This document shows, in pieces, positions 28,515 to 49,410 of a DNA stretch of 64,000 nucleotides (positions within the stretch are counted from its first letter, which is position 1; each line of letters starts with the position of its first letter). The notes under the pieces are model-generated. The model made no database searches. It saw only the letters and a list, made by a program, of their open reading frames with translations, and was not told the DNA's origin. Source of the DNA: an uncultured Bacteroidota bacterium (GTDB lineage: Bacteria > Bacteroidota > Ignavibacteria > UBA10030 > UBA6906); the NCBI GenBank assembly GCA_963809695.1, contig CAWEKI010000001.1, forward strand, positions 21,018 to 85,017, in the 5' to 3' direction. Position numbers and translations under genes: made by a program.

Positions 28515-30575
28515 ATGGACGTGACTCAACCAGGCGAATCAAAAGGCTCTCTCCCAGTCGTAAGTGATGACTTGTCGGCACGCAAGAAGGATCTGACCGG
28601 AGAAGACGAAAGGTCGACTGGATTGGAGGGGAGCCTGGAGGCGCGGCTGGAGTTTGAGATGTTGCTCACCGATCTTTCTGCCCGCTTTGTGAATATCCCC
28701 TCTGAGCGTATCGACAGTGAGATTGAGGATGCCGAGCGTCGCATTTGCGAATTCCTTGCCATTGATGTTGCGACGCTTTGGCAGTGGGAGGAAGTTGCGT
28801 CGGGTGCCTTCGCGTTGACCCACCTCTTCAACGCCAATGGAGATCAGGCCCCGCCAGAACGCAGGATTGATGCGATATATCCCTGGGCCCGGCAACAAAT
28901 GCTGCTCGGCCGCGTGGTTGCTTTTTCGTCTCCAAACGATCTGCCGCCCGAGGCAGCCCGCGACCGCGAATCCCTCCAACGTTTCGGCATCAAGTCAGGT
29001 TTGATACTTCCTCTCTCGGTAGGGGGTGGAGCGACCATCGGGATCTTCGGTCTTGAAACAGTGCGAGCGGAGCGTGACTGGCCGGACGATTTGAAAAAGC
29101 GGTTGCAGTTAGTTGCACAGGTCTTTGCTAATGCCCTGGCGCGAAAGCGCGCAGATCAGGCGTTGATTGACAGTGGCGAGCAATTGGCTCTGGCTGCCGA
29201 GGCAGGGGAAGTCGGCATCTGGGTGCGAGATTATACTCACAACCGAATCTTGGGATCGGAAAAATGGCATCGACTGTTCGGGTTTCCCCCTGGTTCCGAG
29301 GTGAGTCTCGACGATTTTATGCAGCGGATTCACGCAGATGACCATGAACAGGTGGAGCGGGCGATTCTACGCACTATGAAGGAGCGCGTTGATTATGCAG
29401 CAGAATTCCGCCTGGTTCTACCCGATGGAAGGATGCGTTGGATCATGTCCCGTGGGCGGATTCAGGAGGCCGCAAATGGGAAACCGCCCCGTATGTTGGG
29501 AGCAGCAATTGACATCACCGAACGCAAACTGTTGGAGGGACAGCTCATTGATCACCTCCAAGAGATCGAGGAGCTCAAGCAGCGCGTCGAACAAGAGAAC
29601 ACCTATCTGCAGGAAGAGATCGGGCTTCTGGTTGAACACGCGGATATTGTGGGGAAGAGTGCAGCTATCAAGCAGGTTCTCGTTCGGGCAAGCCAGGTGG
29701 CCGGGACAGATGCGACGGTCCTCCTGATGGGCGAGACCGGTACGGGAAAAGAACTACTCGCGAGGGCGATCCACAAGATGAGCCGCCGGAAAGAACGCAC
29801 CCTGGTGACAGTTAACTGCGCCTCGCTACCAGCCACACTGATCGAAAGCGAACTCTTTGGCCGTGAAAAGGGAGCCTACACGGATGCACTGACGAAAATG
29901 GTTGGGAGGTTCGAGCTTGCAGACGGGTCAACGCTTTTTCTCGATGAGATTGGCGAAGTTCCTCTTGAGGTACAGTCCAAGCTCCTGCGCGTCCTCGAGG
30001 AAGGACAGTTTGAACGATTGGGCTCCACAAAGACACTGCATGCGAACGTCCGCATCATTGCTGCCACAAACCGGGATCTCGGGCGGTTTGTGCAGGAAGG
30101 CAAATTTCGGCAAGACCTTTACTACAGGTTGAATGTTTTCCCCCTTGTCGTCCCACCGCTCCGCGAACGGCCGGAGGATATCCCGCTTCTGGTCTGGACC
30201 TTTGTCAGAGAGTTTGAGATGAAGATTGGCAAGCGGATCGATCGCATTTCCAGCAAGTCCATGGATTCCATGCAACGTTACCCCTGGCCGGGCAATGTCA
30301 GGGAATTGAGGAATATGATCGAACACGGGATGATTGTGAGCACCGGTAACACCCTCACGGTGAACTTGCCTCAAGATGACCTTTCAGGAAAAAACAAAGC
30401 TTCAGACCTTGACAGTATTGAACGAAGTCATATACTCAAGGTTCTGACAGGGTCCGGCTGGCGTATCGGCGGCAAAAGCGGGGCGGCAGAGGTCTTGGGA
30501 CTGCAAAGAACTACACTTCAGTCGCTGATGAAAAGACTCGGAATCAAACGTCCCCTCCCCGGGGGACGGCAATAA
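28515..30575 (+). CDS. sigma54-dependent transcriptional activator (enhancer-binding protein) with N-terminal GAF/PAS sensory domains
   Basis: AAA+ sigma54-interaction domain (GETGTGKE, ESELFGREKGAYT, GAFT-equivalent region). C-terminal Fis-type HTH. ATG 28515 chosen by colinearity with the paralog at 46943. Confidence 0.85.
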   Translation: MDVTQPGESKGSLPVVSDDLSARKKDLTGEDERSTGLEGSLEARLEFEMLLTDLSARFVNIPSERIDSEIEDAERRICEFLAIDVATLWQWEEVASGAFALTHLFNANGDQAPPERRIDAIYPWARQQMLLGRVVAFSSPNDLPPEAARDRESLQRFGIKSGLILPLSVGGGATIGIFGLETVRAERDWPDDLKKRLQLVAQVFANALARKRADQALIDSGEQLALAAEAGEVGIWVRDYTHNRILGSEKWHRLFGFPPGSEVSLDDFMQRIHADDHEQVERAILRTMKERVDYAAEFRLVLPDGRMRWIMSRGRIQEAANGKPPRMLGAAIDITERKLLEGQLIDHLQEIEELKQRVEQENTYLQEEIGLLVEHADIVGKSAAIKQVLVRASQVAGTDATVLLMGETGTGKELLARAIHKMSRRKERTLVTVNCASLPATLIESELFGREKGAYTDALTKMVGRFELADGSTLFLDEIGEVPLEVQSKLLRVLEEGQFERLGSTKTLHANVRIIAATNRDLGRFVQEGKFRQDLYYRLNVFPLVVPPLRERPEDIPLLVWTFVREFEMKIGKRIDRISSKSMDSMQRYPWPGNVRELRNMIEHGMIVSTGNTLTVNLPQDDLSGKNKASDLDSIERSHILKVLTGSGWRIGGKSGAAEVLGLQRTTLQSLMKRLGIKRPLPGGRQ

Positions 30576-30690
30576 GACCACGCTGCCGAAATGTCGGCAC
30601 GAGTCTGAAGTTATTCTCACTCTCCACGTTGCTCCCGCCATAAACACCCCCAAAGAGTGCGTTTTTCGTGCAGATCTCTCAGACCTTCTC

Positions 30691-30705
30691 TGGCATGATT
30701 CTCGC
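30691..30705 (+). promoter_or_regulatory. candidate sigma54 (-24/-12) promoter upstream of ABM gene 1
   Basis: TGGCAT-N5-TCGC with the GG-to-GC spacing of 12 expected for RpoN promoters; 75 bp upstream of the ABM start and downstream of the EBP gene. Confidence 0.4.
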
Positions 30706-30780
30706 CGCTTGGTCTCTAGTGTCGAGAGATAAGAGAAGGCTCTCCTTGGGGGAATTCTTCCTTCCCTTCCAGCAAACGAA

Positions 30781-31170
30781 ATGGTTCAATTGCGGTCAAC
30801 ATACCAGTTGGAAGCCAATCAAATGGTTCACACTACGATCAGGATGGAAATGTCTCCGGGAAAAGCAAGGGATGCATTGGAGGTCCTTCGCCCCCTGGCT
30901 GAACGAACCAGAGTCGAGCCCGGATGCATAAGTTGTAGGGTCTATCAAGACGTCCAGCAAGAACATACGATCATGATGGAGGAACTGTGGAGCACCCAGC
31001 AAGAGCTTCGCCGGCATCTCTGCTCTTCGGATTACCAGAGGATCCTCCTGGTGATCGAGATGGCAAAAGGGCAACCTGAGATTAGGTTCAATACGATTTC
31101 ACACTCAAGCGGTTTTGAAACCATAGCTGAGGCAAGAAATCACGATGTGATCGTGGCACACGGCCACTGA
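30781..31170 (+). CDS. ABM (antibiotic biosynthesis monooxygenase)-domain protein
   Basis: Pattern ...VEPGCISCRVYQDVQQEHTIMMEELWSTQQELRRHL... matches the ABM-domain consensus (EPGCL.Y........F...E.W.S.EA...H). Paralog at 49063. Confidence 0.65.
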   Translation: MVQLRSTYQLEANQMVHTTIRMEMSPGKARDALEVLRPLAERTRVEPGCISCRVYQDVQQEHTIMMEELWSTQQELRRHLCSSDYQRILLVIEMAKGQPEIRFNTISHSSGFETIAEARNHDVIVAHGH

Positions 31171-31222: not shown

Positions 31223-33643
31223 ATGGCACAAGCAAAGGCTGCAGAGAAGAGCTCCACAGGGCGCGTCAAGGCAGATAAAGCACGGATCGACCGGCTGAAA
31301 GAACAGCTCAGGAGCACGCCTGCCGAGGTCGATTTTGAACGCGTCAGGATTATGGCGGAGGTGTACGATGATGCTGCCGGCTATCAGACGATCATCTGTA
31401 GGGCCAAATTCATGGCAACCCTGCTTGAGAGGAAAAAGTTGTACATCGACGAAAATCTCTTTGTGGGCAGCATGGCAAGCACCGTCAATGGCATCTACAC
31501 CTATCCGGAATGGCAAGTGGATTGGATGATAGAGGAGAATACGATTGATGAGAAGTGTAAAACCCCGGAAGACAAGAAGGCCAACAAATGGGCGCTCGAA
31601 TACTGGGAAAAGCGTGCACTGAAGCCCCGCACGCTCGATATATTCGAAAGAAAATATGGTTTTGATCCGCGCCCTTCCTATGCTTCCGGCAATGTCGTTA
31701 GTTTCTTTGACTGGCCCGGTGGCGGAGGCAACCTGAACTATCCCCGGGTTTACAGGGAAGGGCTTGCCAGCATGATCAAAGAGGTAGAGGAGCGCGAGGC
31801 AGCCCTCGAAATGAGACTGCCGAATGCGGACAAGTTCGCCTTCTATGAAGCCAGTCTAATTGTCATGAGAGCCTTTATTCGCCTGGCTCACCGTTATGCT
31901 GAACTGGCAAGGGAGATGGCGGCTAAGGAAAAGGATGCAACCCGTAAGGCGGAGCTGATAGCAATTGCCGAAACCTGCGAATGGGTTCCTGAGCATCCGG
32001 CCCGCAATCTGCGGGAGGCTATGCAGTGCCATTTCTTCTGTCATATCGTTGCAGAAATAGAGCAGGTCGGTTGCGGCTATTCTGAGGCTTATCTGGGCCA
32101 GAATTTAGAGCCGTTCTATCAGGCTGACAAGGCTGCCGGTCTAATTGGATATGACGAGGCAGTCTATATGTTCGAGAACCTCGTCATCAAGCTGAACGAG
32201 ATCGGCTATTACTATGGCGAGAAGGTCGCCTTGCAGAACTCTGCCGACCTGGGTCAGAGCATCACGCTCGGTGGCTATACCGAAGATGGAGATGATGCCA
32301 CCGCTGAAATGGATTATGTGGTCCTGGATGCATGTAACTACCTTCACTTGCCACAGCCTCCACTGAGTTGCTGCTACACGGAGAGAATGAGCGGTAAATT
32401 CCTGGAGAAGGTCCTCGATGTAATAGGCACGGGTATCGGTATGCCTCAGTTCGTCAATGGCGAAGTGATGGTGAAGCGCGCCTTGAATCTCTTTGCAGAC
32501 TCCAAGAAGGGCCTCACACTCGAAAAAGCCAGACGCACCTGCATTGGCGCCTGCGTAGGTTCATACATTCCCTATGAGACAGGACACCCTGTTGAAGGGC
32601 AGCCCAACCTGGGGAAGGTCATCGAGTTGTTGATGAACAATGGCTTCGATCCCCGCACCAAGCAGCAGATCGGACCCAAGACCGGAGATCCCGAGACCTT
32701 CAAGACTTTCGAAGAACTATACGCTGCATTCCAAAAGCAGATCGATTTCAACGAGGAGGTTCTCCGCCGGGGTGCATGGATCGCCAGCATGTTGTGCGCG
32801 GACTTCCTGCCGACAACCTGGCGCTCGCTTCTTACCGGGGGCTGCATTGAAACCGGCACCGAGGTATGGAATGGCGGAGCCAATTACTACACAACTGCGC
32901 AAATCGTTGTCGGTGGTGTTGACGCCGCCAACTCGCTGATGGCGGTGAAAAAGTTGGTCTATGATGACAAAAAGATCACCATGGCCGAGCTGAAAAAGGC
33001 GCTGACTGCCAATTGGGTAGGATACGAGCATGTACGCAAGATGTGCTATGAAGCTCCCAAACATGGCAACGACATTCCTGAAATGAACAAGCTGACTCGT
33101 AAGGTGTTCAATAGTATCTATGAGGCTTTCCAAAAGGTAGATGGTGGTGGAAACTACATCAGCCAGGACATTAAATCAGCGCCTGATGCCTATACCAAGA
33201 GCATCCACAACCTGATGGGACTGGTGACGGGCGCGCTGCCGAACGGTAAATATGCCGGGGTTGCACTCACCGATGGAAGTCTGTCGGCCATGCCGGGAAC
33301 CGATGTCAATGGGCCTACCGCGTTGATTATGTCTGCAGCGAAGAGTCAGGATGCCATTAAGTATACAGCAACACACATGAACATGAAATTCCCGCCCGAT
33401 CAGCTGAAAACACGCAAGGGCCGGGATAACGTGCTGAATCTTATCAAGACCTATTTTGACAATGATGGCTATCACATTCAGTTTAATGTGCTCGATACCA
33501 ACATCCTGAGAGATGCACAGAAGCACCCTGAAAACTACCGTGACCTTGTGGTTCGGGTAGCTGGTTTCAGCGCTTTCTTCACCAAACTGGCCCCGGGTGT
33601 GCAGGAAGAGGTCATTGCCCGTACCTTGCAGAGTTTCAAATAA
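31223..33643 (+). CDS. glycyl radical enzyme (pyruvate formate-lyase fold), 806 aa, with non-canonical active-site loop
   Basis: C-terminal glycyl-radical motif VRVAGFSAFF. The C-terminal ~350 aa are colinear with E. coli PflB. The catalytic loop aligns as IGACVGSY against PflB IACCVSPM: a single Cys, neither the CC of PFL nor the CxE of the eliminases. Confidence 0.85.
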   Translation: MAQAKAAEKSSTGRVKADKARIDRLKEQLRSTPAEVDFERVRIMAEVYDDAAGYQTIICRAKFMATLLERKKLYIDENLFVGSMASTVNGIYTYPEWQVDWMIEENTIDEKCKTPEDKKANKWALEYWEKRALKPRTLDIFERKYGFDPRPSYASGNVVSFFDWPGGGGNLNYPRVYREGLASMIKEVEEREAALEMRLPNADKFAFYEASLIVMRAFIRLAHRYAELAREMAAKEKDATRKAELIAIAETCEWVPEHPARNLREAMQCHFFCHIVAEIEQVGCGYSEAYLGQNLEPFYQADKAAGLIGYDEAVYMFENLVIKLNEIGYYYGEKVALQNSADLGQSITLGGYTEDGDDATAEMDYVVLDACNYLHLPQPPLSCCYTERMSGKFLEKVLDVIGTGIGMPQFVNGEVMVKRALNLFADSKKGLTLEKARRTCIGACVGSYIPYETGHPVEGQPNLGKVIELLMNNGFDPRTKQQIGPKTGDPETFKTFEELYAAFQKQIDFNEEVLRRGAWIASMLCADFLPTTWRSLLTGGCIETGTEVWNGGANYYTTAQIVVGGVDAANSLMAVKKLVYDDKKITMAELKKALTANWVGYEHVRKMCYEAPKHGNDIPEMNKLTRKVFNSIYEAFQKVDGGGNYISQDIKSAPDAYTKSIHNLMGLVTGALPNGKYAGVALTDGSLSAMPGTDVNGPTALIMSAAKSQDAIKYTATHMNMKFPPDQLKTRKGRDNVLNLIKTYFDNDGYHIQFNVLDTNILRDAQKHPENYRDLVVRVAGFSAFFTKLAPGVQEEVIARTLQSFK

Positions 33644-33663
33644 TCTGAAGATCAAGGAAGCTC

Positions 33664-33702
33664 ATGTAAGGCATGGCACTTGGTCATGCCTTACATTTTG
33701 TT
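33664..33702 (+). terminator. rho-independent terminator after the GRE gene
   Basis: Perfect 12-bp inverted repeat atgtaaggcatg ... catgccttacat followed by tttgtt. Confidence 0.6.
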
Positions 33703-37449: not shown

Positions 37450-38202
37450 ATGAACGCCAGGTATAACTTTCATTTTATATGGTTAGTACTCTGTGTTCTA
37501 GTGAGTTCTGCAAGCAACAGCTATGCCCAAGATTCATCATTCGAATTATGGCCCGAAACGGATATTTGGTACAGGATAAACCCGTCCTGGCGGCTGTCAG
37601 CTTTTATTCCTATCACAAAATACCACGAAAGCCAAAACCGGGACTTGAATATATATCTGCAGGCCGATTATGCATGGGGCCGGACAACATTCTCCCTGTA
37701 CAGGAGGTTACGAGATGAAGAGAGAGCGGCGCAGATGAGATCTTGGTTACTGCGCTGGGGTTTCATGGAAGGATGGAGCCTGGGTGATAACCCAAGCAAC
37801 TATACGGAAGATATGCTCTTCGCCGAAATCCACAAAAGAGATCCTCTCATAGGAGGCATATTACTCTCGCATCGTATTCGTGTCGACCTCCGGTGGGTTG
37901 GCGAAGATCCGGACCTTTCTTATCGGTTCCGTTACCGTGTCATGCTTGAAAAGGAATATACCTCCGGCAATAGTTCGATTGTTCCTTATGTGAACATAGA
38001 ACCTTTCTGGGACTCGCGCTATGCAACTTTCAGTCGTGTGCGCATTATCGGAGGCGCTACCTTTTCCTGGGGACCACGCTGGGCGTTTGAAGGCAACCTG
38101 ACATATCAGTACGATTCACATTATGATACAAGCAATCTCTATGCGCTCAACCTGATCGTGCACTTGTTTTTTGAAGCAGAGAATGACGATGATACAAATT
38201 AA
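37450..38202 (+). CDS. hypothetical secreted protein (signal peptide; Trp/Tyr-rich)
   Basis: N-terminal signal peptide MNARYNFHFIWLVLCVLVSSASNSYAQ; no catalytic motif recognised. Confidence 0.4.
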   Translation: MNARYNFHFIWLVLCVLVSSASNSYAQDSSFELWPETDIWYRINPSWRLSAFIPITKYHESQNRDLNIYLQADYAWGRTTFSLYRRLRDEERAAQMRSWLLRWGFMEGWSLGDNPSNYTEDMLFAEIHKRDPLIGGILLSHRIRVDLRWVGEDPDLSYRFRYRVMLEKEYTSGNSSIVPYVNIEPFWDSRYATFSRVRIIGGATFSWGPRWAFEGNLTYQYDSHYDTSNLYALNLIVHLFFEAENDDDTN

Positions 38203-38249
38203 CCGGCTGCAGTAAGTCAACAGGGAACGCGAAATTCAGGAGGATATTC

Positions 38250-41030
38250 ATGGGCAAAAACGCTGAAGTAACACGACTTGACGAGGCCCGAACAAAGCGG
38301 GCTCTCTGGAAGAAATGGGGCCCCTACCTGAGCGAACGGCAGTGGGGGACTGTTCGGGAAGACTACAGCCACAGTGGCGACGCCTGGTCGTACTTCACAC
38401 ATGATCAGGCACGGTCGCGCGCATACCGCTGGGGTGAGGACGGACTTGCAGGGATCTCCGACGATCACCAGGTGCTCTGCTTCGCGCTTGCACTCTGGAA
38501 TGGAAAGGACCCGATCCTGAAGGAGCGAGCTTTCGGGTTGAGCAACGGAGAAGGAAATCATGGCGAAGACGTCAAGGAGTATTACTTCTACCTTGACAGT
38601 ACCCCCACGCATTCCTACATGAAATACCTCTACAAGTATCCGCAGGCAGCGTTCCCCTATGCCGATCTTGTTGAGACAAACCGCAGGCGCTCCAAGCAGG
38701 AACTTGAGTACGAGTTGCTGGACACCGGTATCTTTGATGGCGATCGGTACTTCGATGTGCTCGTTGAATATGCCAAGGGCGGCCCCGAAGACGTTCTCGT
38801 CAAGATCAGCGTGTCCAATCGCGGTCCGGAACCGGCCGAGCTCCATGTGCTCCCGACACTATGGTTTCGCAATACCTGGTCCTGGCAGGGCGGTGGTACC
38901 AAGCCCATGCTTGCACAAACTGATCATGCGGGTGGGAGCGTTATGTCAGCCCGTCATACTGACCCACTCTTTCAGCAGTTCATGTCAGACTACAAGCTCT
39001 TCTGCGAGGGGACGCCAGCTCTACTGTTCACTGAGAATGAGACCAACAACGAGAGGTTATTTGGCGGCACAAACGCTTCACCTTATGTCAAGGACGGCAT
39101 CAACAACTATGTGGTGCGCGGAGAGAAAGATGCGGTGAATCCCGCCAACAACGGAACAAAAGCCGCCGCACACTACCCGTTGACCATCAATGCTGGCGAG
39201 ACCAGGATTGTCCGATTGCGCCTTGCGAGGGCAGTGCCGGATGCGGAAGGCACCCCCTTCCGGGAATATGACGATATCTTCGACAAGCGGATTCGCGAAG
39301 CCGATGAGTTCTATGACGGCATTACTCCGCCTGCGGTCAAAGCCGCTCCTGATCGGGCCCGTGTGTTGCGTCAGGCGCTTGCCGGCATGCTGTGGAGCAA
39401 GCAGTACTATTACTATGATCTCCATACGTGGCTGAAAGAACACAATACCGGACCGGGGTCGACACCTGCTACGCGCGGCGACCAGCGCAACGGCGCGTGG
39501 TTCCATATGCTGAACGACGATATTTTCTCGATGCCAGATAAGTGGGAATACCCCTGGTATGCGGCGTGGGACCTCGCGTTCCACACGCTTCCTCTGGCGT
39601 CGGTGGACCCGGATTTTGCGAAGTCACAGCTGGGCCTTCTGCTGCGCAATGAGTATCTGCATCCGAACGGTCAGATACCAGCCTACGAGTGGAACTTCGG
39701 AGATGTCAATCCGCCTGTTCATGCCTATGCCACCATCCAGATCTATTTACAGGATAAGGCCAGGAACAACGGAAAAGGCGATATCGCATTCCTGAAGGCT
39801 GCATTCGAAAAACTCCTGCTGAACCACACCTGGTGGGTGAATCGGAAGGATCGTTACGGGAGTAACGTTTTCGAAGGAGGCTTTCTAGGTCTGGACAATA
39901 TCGGGGTCTTCGACCGGAGCGCTCCGCTACCGACAGGCGGGTATCTTGAGCAGGCAGACGGAACGGCCTGGATGGTCTTCTTCAGCCAGCAGATGGTTCG
40001 CATTGCCACGGAACTCGCGCTGCATGAGCCCCACTATGAGCAATTCGTCTCGAAGTTCGCCGAGAACACGATGTGGATCGCAGGGTCGATGGACCGGATC
40101 GGTGGGGGGAGTGAAGGGATGTGGGACGACGAGGATGGATTCTTCTATGACGTGCTGCGCCTTCCTGACGGTAACTCAATGCGGCTCAAAGTCCGGTCGA
40201 TGGTTGGTCTCCTGCCGCTTGCGGCGGTGGCCATATTCGAAGAGGACATCTTGAAACAGCTCCCGACATTCAGAAAATATGCTGCAAGGTTCATGGCCCG
40301 TCATCCGGAGCTTGCTGCGAATGTGCATATTCCTACAGAGCCGGGCATGGGTGGCAGGCGCATGCTTTCCATCCTCAATGAAGACAAACTGCGTCGCATC
40401 CTGGCGCGTATGTTGGATGAGAACGAGTTCCTCGGTCCCCATGGCATTCGCGCCCTTTCGCGTTATCACCTGGATCACCCGTTCATTTTCAGGCAGGGCG
40501 ACCAGGAGTTCAGTGTTTCGTATCTCCCGGCTGATTCCGACAGCGGTATGTTCGGCGGGAACTCCAACTGGAGAGGTCCTGTCTGGATGCCGGTGAACCT
40601 CATGTTGTACAACGCGCTTCTCCGGCTGGGTGCATACTATGGTGATTCATTCATGGTAGAGTGCCCGACCGGTTCCGGACGGCAGATGAACCTGATCGAG
40701 GTGGCGCACGAGCTTGCCGAGCGGCTGATCTCGACGTTCGAGCTGGATGGCGAGGGGCACCGGCCAGTCTTCGGCGGCATGGAGAAGTTCCGGAACGACC
40801 CGCTCTGGCGAGATTGCATACTGTTCAACGAGTATTTTCACGGCGACAACGGCGCTGGCATTGGCGCCAGCCATCAGACCGGCTGGACCGGCTGCATCGC
40901 CCGGATCATCCAGAGCAATGGGCTCATCACAAAAGAGATGGTGCAGGATAGTGATTTCGAGCGCAGGGTGTTGAAGGCCTCAGTGTCTGTTGAGTCTGAT
41001 TCGCACAAAGTGAAGGAAACGCGCATATGA
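38250..41030 (+). CDS. large (alpha/alpha)6-barrel glycoside hydrolase, GH63-like (mannosyl-/glucosyl-glycerate hydrolase or processing alpha-glucosidase-like)
   Basis: 926 aa. N-terminal [18 protein letters not shown]-type motif and a long Trp-rich C-terminal catalytic-domain pattern that I associate with GH63 / MGH-family enzymes. Assignment is from memory, not a search. Confidence 0.45.
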
Positions 41031-42076
41031 AGGCTATTACCGTAGAGCCCTTGAAACCGGGGACTGCTCAACTGGAGGAGATCCCGGAACCCGATGTTCA
41101 CCAGGGATCGGTTCTGGTCGAAGCAGTGGCGGTGGGCGTTTGTGGCACTGATGTCGAGATTGTGGAAGGAAAGTATGGCTGGGCTCCTCCAGGTAGGACC
41201 CGCCTCGTTCTCGGCCACGAATCTCTCGGCCGCGTGCTCGACCCGGGTCTGTCCGGCGGGCTGAAGAAGGGTGATCTCGTCGTGGGCATTGTCCGGCGTC
41301 CTGACCCCGTTCCGTGTCCCAATTGCGGAGTGGGGGAGTGGGACATGTGTCGCAATGGCCAGTACACCGAGAGGGGGATCAAACAGATTGACGGTTACAT
41401 GTCGGAGCGCTGGAGGATCGAACCCGAGTACGCGATGAAAGTAGATCCTACTCTGGGAATTCTCGGCGTGCTACTTGAACCGACAACAGTTGTGGCCAAG
41501 GCGTGGGAGATGGTCAAGGCGATAGGCCAGCGCTCTTTCTGGGAGCCGCAAAATGTGCTTGTAACAGGTGCTGGGCCTATTGGCCTGCTGGCGGCTCTCA
41601 TCGGGGTGCAAAAGGGGCTGGATGTCCATGTCCTGGATCGCGTCACATCGGGTCCCAAGGTGGAACTGGTGAAGGCTCTTGGTGCAACCTACCATTCGGG
41701 CTCTGTTAAGGACGTCGGCTTCGAGCCGGATATTATTGTCGAGTGTACCGGTGTGGGGCAAGTCGTCGCCGAATCCATACTTAAGGTGGGGGCCGGTGGA
41801 ATCGTATGTCTCACGGGTGTCGGAAGCGGTGGTGCGGCAGCGGGATCGGCCATTGCAGATGTTGCAGCGGGAGCTGTGCTGAGGAATAACGTAATCGTTG
41901 GAAGTGTGAATGCCAACAAGAGGCACTGGTACAAGGCCGGTCAAGCGTTGGCCCAGGCTGATCGGGCATGGCTGGCACGGCTCCTCACGAGACGCGAAAG
42001 ACCGGAGAATTTCAGCAAGGCTTTAAATCGACAACCCGATGACATCAAGGTTATCATTCAGTTCTCAGATCTGTAG
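41027..42076 (+). CDS. zinc-dependent medium-chain dehydrogenase, glucose (aldose) 1-dehydrogenase-like
   Basis: CGTD..I..G (catalytic Zn), GHE, second Zn site CPNCGVGEWDMC. Overall colinearity with archaeal glucose 1-dehydrogenases (MKAI.V.P...). Overlaps the upstream stop (ATGA). Confidence 0.7.
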   Translation: MKAITVEPLKPGTAQLEEIPEPDVHQGSVLVEAVAVGVCGTDVEIVEGKYGWAPPGRTRLVLGHESLGRVLDPGLSGGLKKGDLVVGIVRRPDPVPCPNCGVGEWDMCRNGQYTERGIKQIDGYMSERWRIEPEYAMKVDPTLGILGVLLEPTTVVAKAWEMVKAIGQRSFWEPQNVLVTGAGPIGLLAALIGVQKGLDVHVLDRVTSGPKVELVKALGATYHSGSVKDVGFEPDIIVECTGVGQVVAESILKVGAGGIVCLTGVGSGGAAAGSAIADVAAGAVLRNNVIVGSVNANKRHWYKAGQALAQADRAWLARLLTRRERPENFSKALNRQPDDIKVIIQFSDL

Positions 42077-42089
42077 TCGGCAACCGTGA

Positions 42090-42869
42090 ATGACAATGGA
42101 TAGCAGCACGCACAGGGCATTCCCGTGGCAGGTATACCTCTCAGAACTCATTGGTACAGCAGCCCTCCTTCTGGTGGGGCTGTCGCTGGTGATTGCCATG
42201 TTTGGAAGTGGCAGCCCGATCCCCGGGCTCATGCCGAACGATGCTCTGCGCCGGGCAATCACGGGATTTCTGTTCGGCACAACAGGGGCACTCATCGCGC
42301 TCTCTCCGGTCGGCAAGAGAAGCGGCGCACACATCAACCCGGTGGTCACCCTCGGATTCCGGCTCGCAGGAAAACTCGAATTGAATGTGGCGCTGGGGTA
42401 CATCGCTGCACAGCTTCTCGGCGGGATACTGGGCTGTATCCCACTTCTCCTCTGGGGAACGACCGGCCTCAGTGTTGCCTACGGAGCTACGTTACCCGGA
42501 GTGGGGTACAGTACATTGACCGTTGTGATGGGTGAAGTGGCGACGACCTTTGCGATGGTCTCCCTCCTGGTGCTGTTCCTGGCATTCCGGAAGATCCGCC
42601 GATTCACACCGGCCCTTTTTCCGCCCCTCTATTCGATCATGGTCTGGGCCGAGTCGCCGATATCGGGTACGAGTACCAATCCGGCCAGGAGCCTCGGTCC
42701 TGCTGTGGTCTCAGGACAGTGGGAGGGGTGGTGGATCTACTGGGTAGGACCGGTGCTCGGGGCACTTCTGGCGATGCTTGCGTGCAGTTTTCTTGTCAAG
42801 AAGATTGAGGTGGCAAAGCTTTATCATTTCGACAGTGATCGTGACAGACTATTTCGAAAATCTCAATAA
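42090..42869 (+). CDS. MIP-family channel (aquaporin / aquaglyceroporin)
   Basis: Two half-helix motifs: HINPVVT (NPV variant of the first NPA) and TNPARSLGPA (second NPA). Six TM segments. Confidence 0.8.
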   Translation: MTMDSSTHRAFPWQVYLSELIGTAALLLVGLSLVIAMFGSGSPIPGLMPNDALRRAITGFLFGTTGALIALSPVGKRSGAHINPVVTLGFRLAGKLELNVALGYIAAQLLGGILGCIPLLLWGTTGLSVAYGATLPGVGYSTLTVVMGEVATTFAMVSLLVLFLAFRKIRRFTPALFPPLYSIMVWAESPISGTSTNPARSLGPAVVSGQWEGWWIYWVGPVLGALLAMLACSFLVKKIEVAKLYHFDSDRDRLFRKSQ

Positions 42870-42881
42870 GGAGAATGTCCC

Positions 42882-44567
42882 ATGAAAGTCATCATCGTTG
42901 GTGGAGTAGCCGGGGGTGCGTCGTGTGCGGCGCGTCTGCGCAGACTGGAGGAGAAGGCTGAAATCGTCCTCGTGGAACGCGGACCGTATGTCTCATACGC
43001 GAACTGCGGCCTTCCGTACCATGTCGGGGGTTCGATCGAGCAAGAGGGGAGCCTCCTGGTGGCGACGGAGGAGATGTTCCGGGCAGTGTTCGCGGTTGAT
43101 TGCCGAACGAACTGCGAGGTGGTCGGGATCTCGGCAAAGGCGAAAACAGTGGACCTGAAGAACACCCAAACGGGTACAGTCACGACAGAGAAATATGACA
43201 AGCTTGTGCTTTCCCCCGGTGCGGCGCCGATCCGCCCGCCGCTTCCCGGTATCGACCTTCCGGGCGTGTTCTCTGTGAGAACCGTGCCTGACGCACGTGA
43301 GATCCGCCAGTGGCTTGACCGGGACTCGGACCGTTCCGTAGGGAATCCCTTCACAGGCGTCGACACGGTGTCGAAGCCAAAACATGCGGTAGTGGTCGGA
43401 GGAGGGTTCATTGGTCTGGAGATGGTCGAAAACTTCGTGGACCGCGGGCTTGGTGTCACGCTCTTGGAGAAGCTCGATCAGGTCATGCCGCCGCTCGATC
43501 CCGAAATGGCGCGCCTGGTGGAGCGCTACCTGGTCAGGCACGGCGTTCAGCTTGTGCTCAATGATGGTGTTGCCGGATTCCGTAAGCCGGCTGCCGGGGG
43601 GCTGGAAGTCATGACGGAATCAGGCAAGGCCTTCCCGGCGGACATCGTGATCCTGGCCATCGGTGTGCGTCCGGAAACCGCGCTGGCGAAGATGGCTGGC
43701 ATCGAGATCGGGAAGCGGGGCGGGATTCGGGTCGATGAGCAAATGCGTACGTCCGATCCGGATATCTTTGCCGTCGGCGATGCGGTGGAAGTCAAGGACT
43801 TTGTGACAGGACAGTGGACGCTCATCCCGCTCGCCGGGCCGGCAAATCGCCAAGGGCGGATTGTCGCTGACGTGATCGCCGGCCGCACATCCCGATTCCG
43901 GGGGACGCAGGGAACCTCGATCTGCAAGCTCTTCGATGCGGCGATCGCTCAGACCGGCGTCAGCGAGAAAATGCTGAAGCAGCTGGGTGACGCCGATTAC
44001 GAGAAGATCTATCTCTACCCGAACTCGCACGCGGGGTACTACCCGGGTGCCAAGCTGCTCCCCATGAAGGTCATATTCCGGAAGTCGAACGGTCGGCTCC
44101 TCGGGGCGCAAGTGCTTGGCGAGGATGGGGTCGCCAAACGGATCGATTCCTTTGCCATGGCGATCCAGATGGGGTGCACGATCTACGACCTGGAGGAATC
44201 GGAGTTGAGTTACGCGCCGCCGTTCGGCAGTGCCAAGGACCCGGTGAACTTCGCGGGCATGGTCGCGGCCGATATTCTCCGGGGCGACATGCCGATCACC
44301 CACTGGGAGTCGTTGAATGGCGCTTTCCTGCTTGATGTACGGAATCCGCAGGAAGTGGACGCTGAGGCGGTTCCTGGCGCGGTCAACATCCCGCTGCCTC
44401 AACTCCGCGCCCGCTTGGGTGACCTTCCCCGCGATCGGGAAATCAACATTATTTGTCGATCGGCGGTGCGAGCCTATTTTGCGACGCGGATTCTCCTGCA
44501 AAGTGGGTTCAAGGCAAAGAATATTTCCGGCGGCATGCTGGCACGGTCGCATTGTACCGGGGATTGA
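42882..44567 (+). CDS. CoA-disulfide reductase family flavoprotein with C-terminal rhodanese domain (CoADR-RHD / NADH-dependent persulfide reductase-like), copy 1
   Basis: FAD motif VIIVGGVAGGAS; redox Cys in SYANCGLPYHVGG; NAD(P) motif VVVGGGFIGLE; C-terminal rhodanese with active Cys (ICRSAVRAY). Confidence 0.8.
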   Translation: MKVIIVGGVAGGASCAARLRRLEEKAEIVLVERGPYVSYANCGLPYHVGGSIEQEGSLLVATEEMFRAVFAVDCRTNCEVVGISAKAKTVDLKNTQTGTVTTEKYDKLVLSPGAAPIRPPLPGIDLPGVFSVRTVPDAREIRQWLDRDSDRSVGNPFTGVDTVSKPKHAVVVGGGFIGLEMVENFVDRGLGVTLLEKLDQVMPPLDPEMARLVERYLVRHGVQLVLNDGVAGFRKPAAGGLEVMTESGKAFPADIVILAIGVRPETALAKMAGIEIGKRGGIRVDEQMRTSDPDIFAVGDAVEVKDFVTGQWTLIPLAGPANRQGRIVADVIAGRTSRFRGTQGTSICKLFDAAIAQTGVSEKMLKQLGDADYEKIYLYPNSHAGYYPGAKLLPMKVIFRKSNGRLLGAQVLGEDGVAKRIDSFAMAIQMGCTIYDLEESELSYAPPFGSAKDPVNFAGMVAADILRGDMPITHWESLNGAFLLDVRNPQEVDAEAVPGAVNIPLPQLRARLGDLPRDREINIICRSAVRAYFATRILLQSGFKAKNISGGMLARSHCTGD

Positions 44568-44630
44568 GTTCGCCCTGTACATGTCAGGGGCAGTTCTTCG
44601 CGTGATGGACTAAGCATACATTCAGGAGGA

Positions 44631-45569
44631 GTGATGCCCGAACCCGAGGTCCCGCAGGAAACACCCGACTTCTCACTGGTCCTGGGTGGTCCACTGTTTC
44701 AGCTGTTCCGACGGACACATCTGTCCGGAGCTGGATTGGAGCTGATGAAGCGGCGGATCGTGTTCATCGCTCTTTTCGCGTGGCTGCCGTTGCTGGTGTT
44801 GGCCTTACTGAGTGGGCGCGCTTTGGGTGGCGGAGTCAAAATCCCGTTCTTGTTCGACATCGAGACACATGCTCGATTCCTGATCGCACTGCCGGTATTA
44901 ATTGCAGCGGAAGTGATCGTCCACCGTCATATCCGACCGGTGGTTCAACAGTTCATGGCGCGGCGCATGATCGTCGCGGAGCAAGTTCCGAAATTTCATG
45001 CGGACATCAAGTCGGCAATGCGAGTGCGCAACTCGCCTGTGGTGGAATTGGCATTGCTTGTTTTCGTTTACACGCTAGGACATTGGACTTGGCGGGACGG
45101 GGTTGCAATGGAACAGGCAAGTTGGTATGCAATGCCGGACGGGAAGAGCCTCAATCTCACCTATGCCGGTTACTGGTTGGCCTTCGTCAGCGTACCGCTG
45201 TTTCAGTTTATCCTGTTGCGCTGGTATTTGCGGCTTTTGACCTGGTCCTGGCTCTTGTGGCGTATCTCGAAATTGAGCCTGCGGCTCACCCCTACTCACC
45301 CGGATCGGGCCGGCGGGCTGGGCTTTCTGGGTGATAGTGCCCACGCCTTCGCGCCGATCCTCTTTGCCCAGGGCGCACTTCTTGCAGGGTTGATCGCCAG
45401 CCGGATCTGCTACGACGGTCAGGCCTTGATGACATTCAAGGGAGAGGCCTTAGGGTTCGTGATCGTTTTTGTTCTCTTCATCCTGGGCCCACTCACGGTC
45501 TTTTCCGGCCATCTCGCACGAGCAAAGCGAAAGGGCTTGCGCGAGTACGGAATGCTCGCCAGCCGCTAG
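44631..45569 (+). CDS. hypothetical polytopic membrane protein, apparently frameshifted near 45560 (continues as the 45569-45823 frame)
   Basis: Several hydrophobic helices. The reading frame ends ...EYGMLASR* while the adjacent frame continues ...VQEFDDKWVQGG... with more TM-like sequence. This suggests a frameshift (pseudogene or sequencing error). Confidence 0.4.
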   Translation: MMPEPEVPQETPDFSLVLGGPLFQLFRRTHLSGAGLELMKRRIVFIALFAWLPLLVLALLSGRALGGGVKIPFLFDIETHARFLIALPVLIAAEVIVHRHIRPVVQQFMARRMIVAEQVPKFHADIKSAMRVRNSPVVELALLVFVYTLGHWTWRDGVAMEQASWYAMPDGKSLNLTYAGYWLAFVSVPLFQFILLRWYLRLLTWSWLLWRISKLSLRLTPTHPDRAGGLGFLGDSAHAFAPILFAQGALLAGLIASRICYDGQALMTFKGEALGFVIVFVLFILGPLTVFSGHLARAKRKGLREYGMLASR

Positions 45570-46133: not shown

Positions 46134-46162
46134 AAAATCATGCGCCCTTATTGCGCCCTTGG
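46134..46162 (+). repeat. 29-bp exact repeat aaaatcatgcgcccttattgcgcccttgg (second copy at 61476-61504)
   Basis: Exact match between two noncoding regions; the motif itself contains a direct repeat gcgccctt x2. Confidence 0.7.
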
Positions 46163-46477: not shown

Positions 46478-46512
46478 GACTCGCCCCACCAAAACACAAG
46501 GTGGGGCGAGTC
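46478..46512 (+). repeat. hairpin repeat gactcgccccacc-loop-ggtggggcgagtc (homologous copy at 62535-62572, where it is followed by a T-run, terminator-like)
   Basis: Same 10-12 bp stem sequence in both copies, followed in both by ttggtgggg. Confidence 0.6.
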
Positions 46513-46670
46513 TATTTCCTTGGTGGGGAAGATGCGACTCGCTCAGGGCATTGCCCCGACCTTTGCCTCCGGGGAACTGGGCGAGCGGGAGGAGGGGTTG
46601 CGGCCTAAGCCCCTTTCGTTCTTCCGCGGGCCCGCCAAGCATTTGTAGCTACAGGAGCTCCCCGCAACTT

Positions 46671-46942: not shown

Positions 46943-48922
46943 ATGACAACATTCGCTCGGAGCGAGCCAGAGGAACTTACTTCAAGCCAGCTGAAGTTCG
47001 AGATGGTTCTGGCCGACATCGCTGCCCGATTCCTGAGAATGATCCCGCAGGATGTAAACGAAGAGATCGACCGCGCACTCGGGCAGATTCGCGAGTTTTT
47101 TGAATCCAACATGTGTGGCTTGTTCCGCGTCAACCCTCAGGCCGACGAGCTCATGCTGTCACACGTGGCTGTCACTGAAGCCATACGCATGATTCCGGAT
47201 AAAACGAACTATGCTCCTCGGTCTCCGTGGAGATTTCCCAAGGTGGTCCGGGGAGAAGTCGTTCTGGTGAACAACCTCGATGAGCTTCCGAAGGAAGCAG
47301 ATGTGGACCGGCGCTCAAGTGAGTCGCTGGGGATTCAAGCCTACTTGAGCATACCTGTACCAGTTGGAGGCGTCACGGCCTATCTTCTCCATCTGGCATT
47401 TACGCGGCCGGGACCAGCGTGGCTCGCTACGTATATTCCCAGATTACGCGTGCTTGCGGAAGTTCTGGTCACCGCACTGGAACGTAACAGGGAAATCGCA
47501 GCCCGGGAGGAGACGGAGGCCCGTCTCGAACTCGCGACGGGAATGGCCGGCGCCGGGATGTGGGATCTCGACCTGAGGACCAACGCCTTTTGGGGGACGG
47601 CCCGGGCGAGGGAACTCTACGGGATTGTCGAGGGCGAGAAGGTGAGCCTTGAGACGTTGTACAGCAAGATTCACGCTGATGACATCGAACGACTGAAGCG
47701 GGACCTGGAAGAATCCATGCAGACGGGGGCTTCCCTGGTAACCGAGTACCGAGTTGTACTGCCAGATGGAGGAATTCGATGGGTTGCGGTGCGGGGGGCC
47801 CGTTCTCCAAAACCCGTCCATGGCGGCGAGCACATCCTCGGCGTGTCCGTGGACGTCACGGAGCGGAAGAGCGCGGAAGAAAATACCAGACGTTCGCTTG
47901 AAGAGATCAAACGGCTGAAGGAGATGCTCGAAGTCGAGGCTCGCTTTCTTCGCAAGGAGATAGGCCTTTCGCACTCCCACCTTGACATCGTCGGCAAGAG
48001 CGAAGCAATCAGGATTGTGTTGCACCAGATCGAACAGGTGGCGCCGACTGACTCCACGGTCTTGATCGGGGGGGAGACCGGGACAGGGAAAGAGTTGGTG
48101 GCACGTGCGATTCATTCGCTGGGCAAGAGGAAAGACCGATTAATGGTCAAGGTCGATTGTGCATCCCTTCCGACCACGCTTATCGAAAGCGAGCTCTTTG
48201 GCCGGGAGCGCGGTGCCTACACCGGGGCGATTACCAAACAAGTTGGCCGTTTCCAGATTGCCGATAAGGGGACTGTCTTCCTGGATGAGATCGCTGAGCT
48301 GCCGAGAGAGACGCAGTCCAAGCTCCTCCGGGTCCTGCAGGACGGTTGTTTTGAAATTCTCGGCAGTCCCAAAACGGTGCTTGTGGATGTGCGCGTCATT
48401 GCGGCGACAAACCGTGATCTAGCCAAAGAAGTCAAGGAAGGTCGCTTTCGGGAGGATCTCTACTACCGGCTCAACGTTTTTCCCATCCAGGTTCCTCCGC
48501 TCAGGGAGCGAAAAGAGGACATTCCGATGCTGGTATGGCATTTTGTAGAATTCTTTGCAAAGGAAATGCGCAAGGACATCCGGCGCATCCCCAGGGAGAC
48601 TATGGATGCCCTGGTGAACTACCCCTGGCCGGGGAACGTCCGGGAGATGAAAAACCTCATCGAACAAGGATTCATTATCAGTTCGGATGATCGGTTAACC
48701 GTTCGATTGCCCCAATCCCCAATTGCCGCCTCACGTTCTCCTCAGACGCTCGAGGCGATCGAACGACAGCACATTCTGGATATCCTGAATCAGCAACAGT
48801 GGCGCATCAAGGGGGCAGGAGGGGCCGCCGCGCTACTCGGCATGAATCCTTCCAGCCTCTACTCGAAGATGAAACGCCTCGGTATTCCCACCAAACACAA
48901 AAAAGACGATAGTACAACCTAG
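46943..48922 (+). CDS. sigma54-dependent transcriptional activator with GAF/PAS domains (paralog of 28515-30575)
   Basis: GETGTGKE, ESELFGRERGAYT, C-terminal HTH. Colinear with the first EBP. ATG 46943 preferred over ORF-track start 46781. Confidence 0.85.
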   Translation: MTTFARSEPEELTSSQLKFEMVLADIAARFLRMIPQDVNEEIDRALGQIREFFESNMCGLFRVNPQADELMLSHVAVTEAIRMIPDKTNYAPRSPWRFPKVVRGEVVLVNNLDELPKEADVDRRSSESLGIQAYLSIPVPVGGVTAYLLHLAFTRPGPAWLATYIPRLRVLAEVLVTALERNREIAAREETEARLELATGMAGAGMWDLDLRTNAFWGTARARELYGIVEGEKVSLETLYSKIHADDIERLKRDLEESMQTGASLVTEYRVVLPDGGIRWVAVRGARSPKPVHGGEHILGVSVDVTERKSAEENTRRSLEEIKRLKEMLEVEARFLRKEIGLSHSHLDIVGKSEAIRIVLHQIEQVAPTDSTVLIGGETGTGKELVARAIHSLGKRKDRLMVKVDCASLPTTLIESELFGRERGAYTGAITKQVGRFQIADKGTVFLDEIAELPRETQSKLLRVLQDGCFEILGSPKTVLVDVRVIAATNRDLAKEVKEGRFREDLYYRLNVFPIQVPPLRERKEDIPMLVWHFVEFFAKEMRKDIRRIPRETMDALVNYPWPGNVREMKNLIEQGFIISSDDRLTVRLPQSPIAASRSPQTLEAIERQHILDILNQQQWRIKGAGGAAALLGMNPSSLYSKMKRLGIPTKHKKDDSTT

Positions 48923-49034
48923 GGACGGTATTAAACCCTTTCCCGGGCACGATCCAATTCTCAATTGTTCCAGCAATCGCCCCAACCTGTTGCTCCGCTG
49001 CAGATTCTCGATAACTCCTCCCATATCTGCAATG

Positions 49035-49049
49035 TGGCACGCGCAATGC
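49035..49049 (+). promoter_or_regulatory. candidate sigma54 promoter upstream of ABM gene 2
   Basis: TGGCAC-gcgca-aTGCg; GG/GC spacing 12; ~14 nt upstream of the ABM start codon (nearly leaderless). Confidence 0.45.
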
Positions 49050-49062
49050 GTACTTCTCAGGC

Positions 49063-49410
49063 ATGTTCCTCACCATCGTACGCATTTTTCCTCCTACTGC
49101 TGAACTAGAGGCGATCCGGGCTTACCTGTCGGGTTTCCTGGGACCAACCGGCGTTCAACCAGGTTGCCTGGGTTGCACGTTGGCTGAGGAGTCTGACCCG
49201 GAGGCGCTCGTCTATACGGAAACGTGGCAGACGGAGGAAGAATTCTTGTGTCGACTGCAATCAGGGAAATTCGCGAAGATACTTGAGATTTCCGAGATGT
49301 CCGTTGGGAGACCCGATGTCTGGATTTGCGAAGTCATCAATCAACAAGGGTTGGAGTTTGTCGATAAACTCAGAAAGGATCGCCCGGAGGAGACGCAATC
49401 AACGACATGA
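49063..49410 (+). CDS. ABM-domain protein (paralog of 30781-31170)
   Basis: ...VQPGCLGCTLAEESDPEALVYTETWQTEEEFLCRLQSGKF... matches the ABM consensus. Confidence 0.6.
   Translation: MFLTIVRIFPPTAELEAIRAYLSGFLGPTGVQPGCLGCTLAEESDPEALVYTETWQTEEEFLCRLQSGKFAKILEISEMSVGRPDVWICEVINQQGLEFVDKLRKDRPEETQSTT

Follow-up and report, generated by a model that had tools for sequence, protein, structure and literature searches.

How are genes controlled by an activator whose closest neighbour is a small protein of the ABM fold? This question is raised twice by a 64,000-nt stretch of DNA from an uncultured Bacteroidota bacterium (GenBank assembly GCA_963809695.1, contig CAWEKI010000001.1, positions 21,018 to 85,017 of the forward strand; hereafter, the window), in which two genes for sigma-54 enhancer-binding proteins (EBPs), EBP1 and EBP2, are each followed by an ABM gene, ABM1 and ABM2. 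We consider it likely that each of these two modules is a self-contained sigma-54 switch, composed of the EBP, a pair of dyads, a promoter, an ABM gene in first position, and exchangeable cargo. Proteins were assigned with Pfam and NCBIfam profiles at curated cut-offs and RNAs with Rfam; the positions of the features are collected in Table 1.

Both activators carry the Pfam domains GAF, PAS_3, Sigma54_activat, AAA_lid_14 and HTH_8. Along 640 residues, a stretch that takes in the sensor domains, the two proteins align colinearly with 46% identity, which bears out the shared architecture and colinear N-termini described in the initial annotation. The AAA+ domain (PF00158) is matched over the full profile in each (E=5e-69 in EBP1, 2e-67 in EBP2), HTH_8 scores 32.4 bits in EBP2 (cut-off 22), and the alignment of the two proteins runs through to the C-terminus, including the helix-turn-helix (HTH) region. 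The loop that contacts sigma-54, canonically GAFTGA, reads GAYTDA in EBP1 and GAYTGA in EBP2. Across 61 members of the EBP family we counted GAYTGA in 53, GAFTGA in 4, GAYTDA in 3 (EBP1 and the EBPs of loci L022 and L057) and GSYTGA in 1. Both window variants are among the tolerated loop variants of Desulfovibrio EBPs, in which function is expected to be retained (Kazakov et al. 2015, PMC4641369). The sensor domains matched no named equivalog: all NCBIfam matches were below cut-off and covered the AAA+ part only. No cysteine is aligned between the two sensor regions in the pairwise alignment, and rpoN was not found among the window open reading frames (ORFs) scanned. The two ABM proteins are 28% identical, and the two CoADR-RHD enzymes (CoA-disulfide reductase with rhodanese) encoded further downstream are 81% identical; the modules are thus paralogous, as had been proposed, over at least three genes. 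As to the start of EBP1, its frame is open for 112 codons upstream of ATG 28515, from TTG 28179 (28179-28514), and, counted from ATG 28515, residue 43 is the first that aligns with EBP2.

The initial annotation had placed a -24/-12 candidate with a GG-GC spacing of 12 in each EBP-ABM gap, at 30691 and 49035. We found both elements at these positions (TGGCATGATTCTCGC at 30691-30705 and TGGCACGCGCAATGC at 49035-49049); in each, the spacing of 12 means that GG and GC are 10 nt apart, in a TGGCAC-N5-TTGC-like context. In a rough RpoN weight-matrix scan of the window, an analysis that the annotation had suggested, the module 1 site ranks 1st (13.7 bits) and the module 2 site 13th (11.1 bits). Several equal scores fall inside genes, ~0.02 are expected per intergenic region, and the window sites are statistically weak on their own. 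The same scan revealed no shared sigma-54 site of at least 9 bits in the gaps upstream of the PFK or CoADR genes.

It is conservation in related loci that raises these sites above chance. We assembled two sets of loci: 80 retrieved from a genome collection with the glycyl radical enzyme (GRE) of module 1 as query, and thus chosen regardless of ABM or EBP (L001-L080), and 80, of which 71 are distinct, from a metagenomic scan with a narrower ABM alignment, A2 (L081-L160). Six of the GRE-anchored loci (L010, L015, L022, L070, L071 and L079) have a -24/-12 element 86-112 nt before the provisional ABM start, the aligned ATG lying ~42 nt further from the promoter. In 51 of the 71 distinct metagenomic loci, a sigma-54 site scoring at least 10 bits lies 95-150 nt before the ABM ATG, compared with 0.011 expected per locus; the commonest distance is 135 nt, and the consensus is YGGCACGTATTTGGCA. 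The start of ABM1 bears on this comparison. Alignment with 13 orthologues favours ATG 30823 (M15) over 30781; this ATG is preceded by GGAAG 9-13 nt upstream, and the resulting protein has 115 amino acids, the same length as ABM2. The annotation's claim of an ABM gene of ~115-130 aa after each EBP therefore stands, both proteins passing the Pfam cut-off, with the ABM1 start probably moved from 30781 to 30823. From ATG 30823 the module 1 promoter is 133 nt away, and so falls within the conserved distance range. In dozens of divergent loci the element stays in place and keeps its GG/GC core, whereas the bases around it change, and the two candidates are probably functional promoters.

Could the -24/-12 matches nevertheless be non-functional, with ABM and the following genes transcribed by polymerase that reads on from the EBP gene or has started at a sigma-70 promoter, and with an EBP that acts without sigma-54? 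TyrR, DhaR and Rhodobacter NtrC do act in this way. The non-canonical loop of EBP1, the equal-scoring matches inside genes and the EBP-ABM gaps, in which a terminator scan found no terminator, would all be compatible with such an arrangement. We nonetheless judge it very improbable: the conservation just described would be hard to reconcile with it, dyads lie at the classic enhancer distance (see below), and GAYTGA is the loop of 53 of the 61 family members, tyrosine at this position being reported as tolerated (PMC4641369). We infer that both modules depend on sigma-54 and start at the sites predicted in Table 1. Elsewhere in the window, a third sigma-54-like site, TGGCATGAATCATGCG (13.0 bits), occupies an intergenic position at 62727-62742 with no adjacent EBP; an ORF that begins 82 nt after it, at 62809, encodes a signal-peptide protein and runs off the window.

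If the EBPs act at these promoters, binding sites would be expected upstream of the -24 elements, where the annotation had proposed that palindromes be sought. We found two adjacent 16-bp dyads, conserved at or just after the EBP stop codon in ~60 orthologous loci and typically of the forms TGCCGAATTAACGTCT and TGCCAATATATTGGCA. The second dyad covaries symmetrically (TGTCG..CGACA, TGGCA..TGCCA, TGTCC..GGACA, TGTCA..TGACA; TGCCA..TGGCA also occurs among the dyads), as expected if a dimeric HTH co-evolves with its site. Of the two dyads of module 1, the first (GGACGGCAATAAGACCA, 30564-30580) is degenerate and runs across the EBP1 stop codon, and the second (TGCCGAAATGTCGGCA, 30584-30599) is perfect and unique in the window; their centres are at about -145 and -125 from the predicted transcription start. 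The dyads of module 2 (48904-48938) have the same geometry, with centres at about -150 and -130. These were assigned by position and by analogy with the clean GGACG-N6-CGTCC dyads that two relatives (L164 and L030) have where the EBP gene ends. Of all parts of the model, the module 2 enhancer is the weakest. A 12-mer, GGACGGYAWTAA, occurs in exact copies at both EBP stop codons and nowhere else in the window, suggesting possible cross-talk between the modules.

Dyads of the TGT-N10-ACA type are the classic NifA/NtrC-type enhancer form, and we take the tandem dyads, ~125-150 bp from the predicted start, as probable EBP-bound enhancer sites. Palindromes at a stop codon might instead be RNA hairpins that end or stabilise the EBP transcript: they do lie at the 3' end of the EBP gene, and a conserved stem would covary just as symmetrically. 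The stems, however, are short, with AT-rich centres and no U-tract, and the plus-strand terminator scan did not flag them. Nor would hairpins readily explain why the palindromes come as a pair of neighbouring 16-bp units, of which one is imperfect, why their distance from a sigma-54 promoter is fixed at ~125-150 bp, or why their form is the classic NifA/NtrC-like one, and we therefore consider the RNA explanation highly unlikely. Between enhancer and promoter, the metagenomic loci (L081-L160) also share a conserved A/T-rich stretch, ttgacaatataatcg, where a site for integration host factor (IHF) would be expected.

Does the ABM gene belong to this switch or to the genes that it precedes? Among the 80 GRE-anchored loci, an ABM gene is present in 16, an EBP gene in 15, both in 14 and neither in 63. 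The two loci with ABM only lie at contig edges, so that 14 of 14 assessable ABMs have an EBP upstream. Similarly, an EBP lies directly upstream in nearly all of the metagenomic ABM loci, wherever upstream DNA exists. Together with the 890 ABM protein clusters that metagenomes hold in one ABM clade alone, these counts agree with the earlier statement that the EBP-ABM arrangement is recurrent. The downstream genes follow no such rule. GRE clusters up to 94% identical to that of the window lack the cassette, and the cassette-free loci examined have genes for LuxR-type, MalT-like or two-component regulators upstream instead; many CoADR-RHD genes likewise have no ABM. The gene right after ABM is most commonly CoADR-RHD (~17 loci), and in at least 7 other loci it is GRE. 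Other cargo comprises zinc-dependent alcohol dehydrogenase (Zn-ADH), GH63, porins, DUF3300, MlaEF, SBF, SulP-STAS and molybdopterin oxidoreductase genes, rhodanese with an SsuA-like protein, and an MBL-fold protein with arylsulfatase; the kinds of gene found at 37450..45569 also recur as cargo behind EBP-ABM elsewhere. The ABM gene travels with the EBP and not with the genes downstream. Because it follows the EBP rather than any cargo, we infer that it is part of the switch. Sulfur-related cargo recurs often (CoADR-RHD, rhodanese, SulP, SBF, SsuA-like proteins, sulfatases and a molybdopterin oxidoreductase), and from it we would guess that the inducing signal may have to do with sulfur compounds. 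In the GRE loci with a divergent LuxR-type regulator, a conserved 180-aa protein (MAELTAKLFRDFFGGSWSGK...) is encoded immediately before GRE, at the position taken by ABM in the sigma-54 version (L001 5353-5895, L005 5263-5805, L013 5304-5846).

The ABM proteins themselves look generic. Both exceed the Pfam ABM cut-off of 23.1 bits (PF03992; ABM1 50.9, ABM2 29.9). An AlphaFold2 (AF2) model of ABM2 (pLDDT 74) has the ABM fold, a ferredoxin-like beta-alpha-beta arrangement, with an additional C-terminal helix; the top Foldseek matches of the model are ABM dimers, LsrG ranking third among the structural matches. The closest solved relatives in the PDB are structural-genomics proteins without an assigned function, and sequence and fold searches of the PDB as a route to function returned generic ABM proteins only. 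We also considered a CxxC at residues 35-38 of ABM2 (window 49165-49176; PGCLGC in ABM2, PGCISC in ABM1) as a defining redox motif, and rejected it: it is present in only about half of the wider family, and its first cysteine, Cys35, which is invariant, is a general ABM feature. In the AF2 model, the CxxC falls in the internal part of lowest confidence. In the ABM2 group, M1, T4, R7 and the CxxC are invariant in 18 sequences (alignment A4). One metagenomic locus, L129, holds two ABM genes of this family (145-480 and 1317-1739), ~0.9 kb apart, the second with a long N-terminal extension and followed by genes for a membrane protein and a sulfatase.

These features are open to a different reading, namely that ABM is the first enzyme or an accessory of the regulated pathway, for example in cofactor-free redox chemistry with CoADR-RHD or on a sulfur or quinone substrate, and has no regulatory role; its conservation would then reflect a step that every cargo set needs. 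The ABM-family members of known function (ActVA-Orf6, IsdG, YgiN and LsrG) are indeed enzymes, the model has the generic ABM fold, Cys35 and, in the ABM2 group, the CxxC are invariant, and CoADR-RHD is the commonest gene right after ABM. Yet 64 of the 80 GRE loci and many CoADR-RHD genes do without ABM, the cargo extends to porins, DUF3300 proteins, sulfatases, MlaEF and GH63, and ABM occurs with the EBP and essentially only then. We rate this enzymatic alternative as possible though rather unlikely. As a component of the switch, ABM might act enzymatically to produce or clear the effector, in the manner of LsrG with phospho-AI-2, or might modulate the EBP as its partner, in the manner of PspA with PspF or of DhaK/DhaL with DhaR. 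Only tentatively do we propose the fullest version, in which EBP and ABM would form a portable, horizontally spread two-protein sensory cassette, with ABM as co-sensor, anti-activator or effector converter, that in one lineage is obligately leaderless.

The last of these features emerged from the layout of module 2. Here, the GC of the promoter (49048-9) is followed by 13 nt and then by ATG 49063. Upstream of this ATG, the ABM2 frame meets a stop codon with no alternative start; the protein is conserved from M1 (18 sequences), the residue with which strand beta-1 opens in the model. Orthologues of ABM2 were retrieved from other metagenomes with 53-61% identity, and all have an EBP 139-149 nt upstream. 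In loci L161, L162/3 and L164-6 (3 distinct sequences), TGGTAC-N5-nTGC lies exactly 13 nt before the ATG; the gap is constant in length, diverges in sequence and contains no Shine-Dalgarno motif. Seven other loci encode ABMs with short N-termini, mostly in genomes labelled Acidobacteriota, and 6 of the 7 have a gap of 12-15 nt between GC and the start codon, again with no GGAGG-like sequence in these gaps. With one exception (L077), the start codon is ATG in all loci of the short-N-terminus and ABM2 types. Transcription from sigma-54 promoters normally starts 11-13 nt downstream of GC; with a gap of 12-15 nt, this predicts a 5' untranslated region (5'-UTR) of 0-4 nt, and for module 2 a start 0-3 nt before the ATG, most simply near 49061, 2 nt before it. 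In the leadered class, by comparison, the leader is ~118 nt long and ends in AAGGAG, and module 1 has a predicted leader of ~105 nt with a Shine-Dalgarno sequence. Leadered and apparently leaderless layouts therefore both occur in this window, and module 2 and its relatives are predicted to make leaderless sigma-54 mRNAs. To our knowledge, known leaderless mRNAs use sigma-70-type promoters; leaderless transcripts from sigma-54 promoters were not found in the literature searched, which does not prove that there are none.

Module 2 may, of course, not be leaderless at all. Transcription could start elsewhere, or a read-through mRNA could be translated non-canonically, the spacing being incidental: the start site of module 2 is a prediction, the EBP2-ABM2 gap has no terminator, such that a read-through mRNA is conceivable, and L077 begins with GTG. 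Against this, the 13-nt gap is invariant despite its diverging sequence, the other short-N-terminus loci keep it at 12-15 nt, and a Shine-Dalgarno sequence is missing, whereas the leadered class has a strong one. We think it unlikely that module 2 is not leaderless.

The long leaders were also assessed for RNA structure. RNAalifold on 41 leaders gave no consensus that would support a riboswitch or structured leader in the ~118-nt 5'-UTR, and the only Rfam matches in the window are two tRNAs. In the main long-leader ABM clade (L081-L160), which has one cluster member labelled Acidobacteriia, the leader is strongly conserved (e.g. tttACGTGACgttgaaaacagccgtcaattattctcgacaagg). From the alignments, this conservation is at the level of sequence and within one clade; as it is not accompanied by a consensus RNA fold, the leader may be a second protein-binding region.

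How far do the transcripts reach? ABM1 and GRE are separated by 52 nt with no terminator-like hairpin, whereas GRE is followed by a 14-bp hairpin with a T-run and then by a 400-nt gap before the PFK gene. ABM1-GRE is therefore the safe minimal unit. The earlier suggestion that the module 1 promoter also drives GRE is plausible on these grounds, and also because at least 7 further loci have GRE directly after ABM. In module 2, the gene that follows ABM2 (Y244) starts within the ABM2 stop region, the two overlapping, and a scan of the window found no strong plus-strand terminator before ~61.7 kb.

The GRE itself has PFL-like (PF02901, 5e-144) and Gly_radical (PF01228, 2e-29) domains, with an activase gene nearby at 35237-36211. 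Its best solved relative is HypD (3e-125), but it falls below every NCBIfam equivalog cut-off (HypD 482 bits against 1100), and by these scores it belongs to an uncharacterised subfamily. The order GRE-PFK-activase is kept in nearly all of the 80 GRE-anchored loci, often with a second PFK and a Fer4 protein, and the cluster shows 72-94% protein identity across metagenome-assembled genomes (MAGs) labelled as many phyla; judged from these comparisons, the GRE system is constantly linked to a PFK-like protein and is apparently horizontally mobile. The CoADR-RHD proteins consist of Pyr_redox_2, Pyr_redox_dim and a C-terminal rhodanese domain; with 464 bits against a TIGR03385 cut-off of 579, they are assigned at the subfamily level only. 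In the literature searched, we found no published description of either the EBP-ABM cassette or this GRE cluster.

Weighed as a whole, the proposed switch has several observations against it. HTH_8 of EBP1 reaches 19.6 bits and so remains under the Pfam cut-off, and the GAYTDA loop of the same protein is unusual. The module 2 dyads have weak right half-sites, and, as noted, the promoter matches of the window are statistically weak on their own. One locus, L057, has a related EBP without ABM, and nothing in the ABM sequence or model, which is that of a generic ABM dimer, favours a regulatory over an enzymatic role. The strong hairpin after GRE may end most module 1 transcripts and leaves the reach of the operon uncertain. 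Finally, the GTG of L077 is a poor start codon for leaderless translation.

The initial annotation had further drawn attention to a long noncoding region upstream of each EBP that carries the motif tgtccacctgtta. The motif does lie upstream of both EBPs, but it belongs to repeated junction DNA and is probably unrelated to regulation. This 13-mer occurs exactly at 27748, 45974 and 46322 and with 2 mismatches at 61951, within a ~100-nt block that carries TGTCCACCTGTTA and is present in four copies of one orientation (27737, 45963, 46311 and 61940). The first copy lies near tRNA-Leu(gag) (27421-27504). The 3' end of this tRNA, its terminator hairpin and a further ~320 nt are duplicated at 61687-62029 with 73% identity, the duplicate holding a 3' fragment of the tRNA only; other short pieces link the 46-kb and 62-kb regions, and a second tRNA-3'-like piece lies near 62229. 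The repeats thus define three junction regions (27421-27850, 45951-46530 and 61466-62580) that delimit two EBP-ABM segments. As far as the sequence goes, this fits two adjacent island acquisitions at tRNA-Leu, although no integrase is present. tgtccacctgtta is absent from all 160 related loci (L001-L160), and hence is not part of the switch; we rejected it as a regulatory motif of the EBP genes. We likewise rejected a reverse-strand peptide in the tgtccacctgtta block, the similarity of which was weak and broken by stop codons. Apart from these junctions, GGTCTGACCCT forms tandem 11-nt repeats downstream of tRNA-Lys (22241-22313), first at 22318-22381 and then at 23051-23125; the repeats lie near a minus-strand ORF with an IS200-like Y1 transposase domain (22599-23996).

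Every gene of both segments is on the plus strand (Table 1). A homology between the DUF2490 protein and Y244 was considered and dropped: BLASTP gave no support, and Pfam a faint hint only.

Table 1. Features of the two modules and their surroundings (window positions; strand is given as a dot for the dyads).
Feature	Position	Strand	Remarks
tRNA-Leu(gag) and first copy of the repeated junction	27421..27850	+	Outside the switch
EBP1	28515..30575	+	Sigma-54 activator, GAF-PAS_3-AAA+-HTH_8; Pfam and alignment with EBP2
Candidate enhancer, module 1	30564..30599	.	Two dyads; putative EBP-binding sites
Sigma-54 promoter, module 1, TGGCATGATTCTCGCC	30691..30706	+	GG 30692-3, GC 30704-5; predicted start ~30717
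ABM1, ABM-fold protein	30781..31170	+	Likely start ATG 30823 (115 aa), from orthologue alignment
GRE, uncharacterised subfamily	31223..33643	+	Probable second gene of the module 1 transcript
Terminator-like hairpin after GRE	33664..33696	+	14-bp stem; putative function
PFK-family protein	34052-35224	+	Pfam; core cluster with GRE
GRE activase (radical-SAM)	35237-36211	+	Pfam; core cluster with GRE
Fer4 (ferredoxin-like) protein	36251-37390	+	Pfam; core cluster with GRE
Remaining genes of segment 1	37450..45569	+	Pfam/NCBIfam; operon membership putative; include DUF2490 outer-membrane protein, GH63/MGH1-like hydrolase, glucose-dehydrogenase-like Zn-ADH, MIP channel
CoADR-RHD1	42882-44567	+	Pfam/NCBIfam
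Membrane protein X312	44631-45569	+	
EBP2, paralogous sigma-54 activator	46943..48922	+	Contact loop GAYTGA
Candidate enhancer, module 2	48904..48938	.	AGACGATAGTACAACC (48904-19) and GGACGGTATTAAACCC (48923-38), flanking the EBP2 stop codon
Sigma-54 promoter, module 2, TGGCACGCGCAATGCG	49035..49050	+	GG 49036-7, GC 49048-9; predicted start ~49061
ABM2, ABM-fold protein, 115 aa	49063..49410	+	Start codon abuts the promoter
Likely module 2 cargo	49407..57774	+	Operon extent putative
Y244 outer-membrane beta-barrel	49407-50141	+	Start overlaps ABM2 stop
Outer-membrane protein beta-barrel	50160-50717	+	
CoADR-RHD2	50793-52478	+	
SBF transporter	~52364-53371	+	Start uncertain
SBF-like transporter	53457-54581	+	
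SulP-STAS	54604-56406	+	
NMT1/SsuA-like protein	56587-57774	+	

Several known systems resemble these modules in part. One-component EBPs of the NifA/FhlA/NorR type have the same AAA+ domain, Fis-type HTH and GAF/PAS sensor, and the same dyads more than 100 bp upstream of GG-N10-GC (TGN-N10-NCA here, TGT-N10-ACA for NifA). Unlike them, the modules described here have a GAYTGA/GAYTDA loop, an enhancer that overlaps the activator's own stop codon, and an ABM gene as first target. Activators on which a neighbouring or controlled protein feeds back are also familiar (PspF-PspA, DhaR-DhaK/DhaL and NifA-NifL), and DhaR, like the EBPs of the window, has a GAF-PAS sensor. The ABM fold is, however, unrelated to PspA, NifL or DhaK/DhaL, and a partnership of ABM with the EBP is proposed here from gene linkage alone. 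LsrG is a small ABM-fold protein of the regulated lsr operon that converts the regulator's effector; its sequence identity to ABM is ~15%, and LsrR is a repressor rather than an EBP. With leaderless bacterial mRNAs, module 2 shares a predicted 5' end no more than 3 nt from the AUG and the lack of a Shine-Dalgarno sequence.

Two systems come close in their gene context. For Desulfovibrionales, Kazakov et al. (2015, PMC4641369) predict that DVU2275 and DVU2827 act through sigma-54 on operons for 'pyruvate formate-lyase' (GRE). As in module 1, the EBP gene there neighbours an operon for a GRE and its activase that has a palindromic enhancer and a sigma-54 promoter, the latter conserved. The GRE subfamilies differ, no ABM gene is mentioned in that study (PMC4641369), and the likeness described here is one of gene context. 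FisR of Cupriavidus and Acinetobacter is a sulfide/persulfide-responsive sigma-54 activator (PMC7315123) and, like the EBPs here, stands beside a sulfur-handling operon, its targets being persulfide-metabolising enzymes and a putative sulfite exporter. FisR, however, is divergently transcribed and controls PDO, SQR and TauE (PMC7315123), in place of which we find ABM and CoADR-RHD. Profile scans of the window found no PDO or SQR gene in the cargo, and EBP1 and EBP2 share no sensor cysteine; the likeness to FisR is thus in theme only.

Taken together, these comparisons and the evidence above suggest the following sequence of events. The EBP would be a one-component activator that unites a GAF-PAS sensor, an AAA+ ATPase and a Fis-type HTH in one chain. 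It would bind the two tandem 16-bp dyads that overlap or follow the end of its own gene, ~125-150 bp from the transcription start and upstream of it, and, on receiving its signal, would remodel the sigma-54 RNA polymerase that waits at the -24/-12 promoter. Transcription would always reach ABM first and then the exchangeable cargo: in module 1, GRE, to which read-through might add the PFK-like, activase and ferredoxin genes and those further on; in module 2, the outer-membrane barrels, the CoA-disulfide-reductase/rhodanese enzyme, and the SBF and SulP transporters. The cassette is, in this light, a sigma-54 operon of the ordinary EBP-dependent kind, but its form is very widespread and was not found described. 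Two features make it unusual: ABM is obligatory as the first gene, and one variant is predicted to be leaderless.

The cassette is carried by MAGs labelled Acidobacteriota, Planctomycetota, Bacteroidota, Chloroflexi, Verrucomicrobiota and Proteobacteria, and it is common in soil, wetland and sediment metagenomes. The genes that it appears to control, an uncharacterised GRE cluster, persulfide-reductase-like enzymes and transporters of sulfur compounds, are of likely biogeochemical weight. With promoter, enhancer and activator known, an inducible reporter would offer a route to the signal and then to the substrate of the GRE. If ABM is part of the switch, it would be the first of its kind among the partner proteins of sigma-54 activators. 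If the leaderless mRNAs are confirmed, enhancer-dependent promoters would be coupled directly to leaderless translation, in a 13-nt geometry that is open to dissection.

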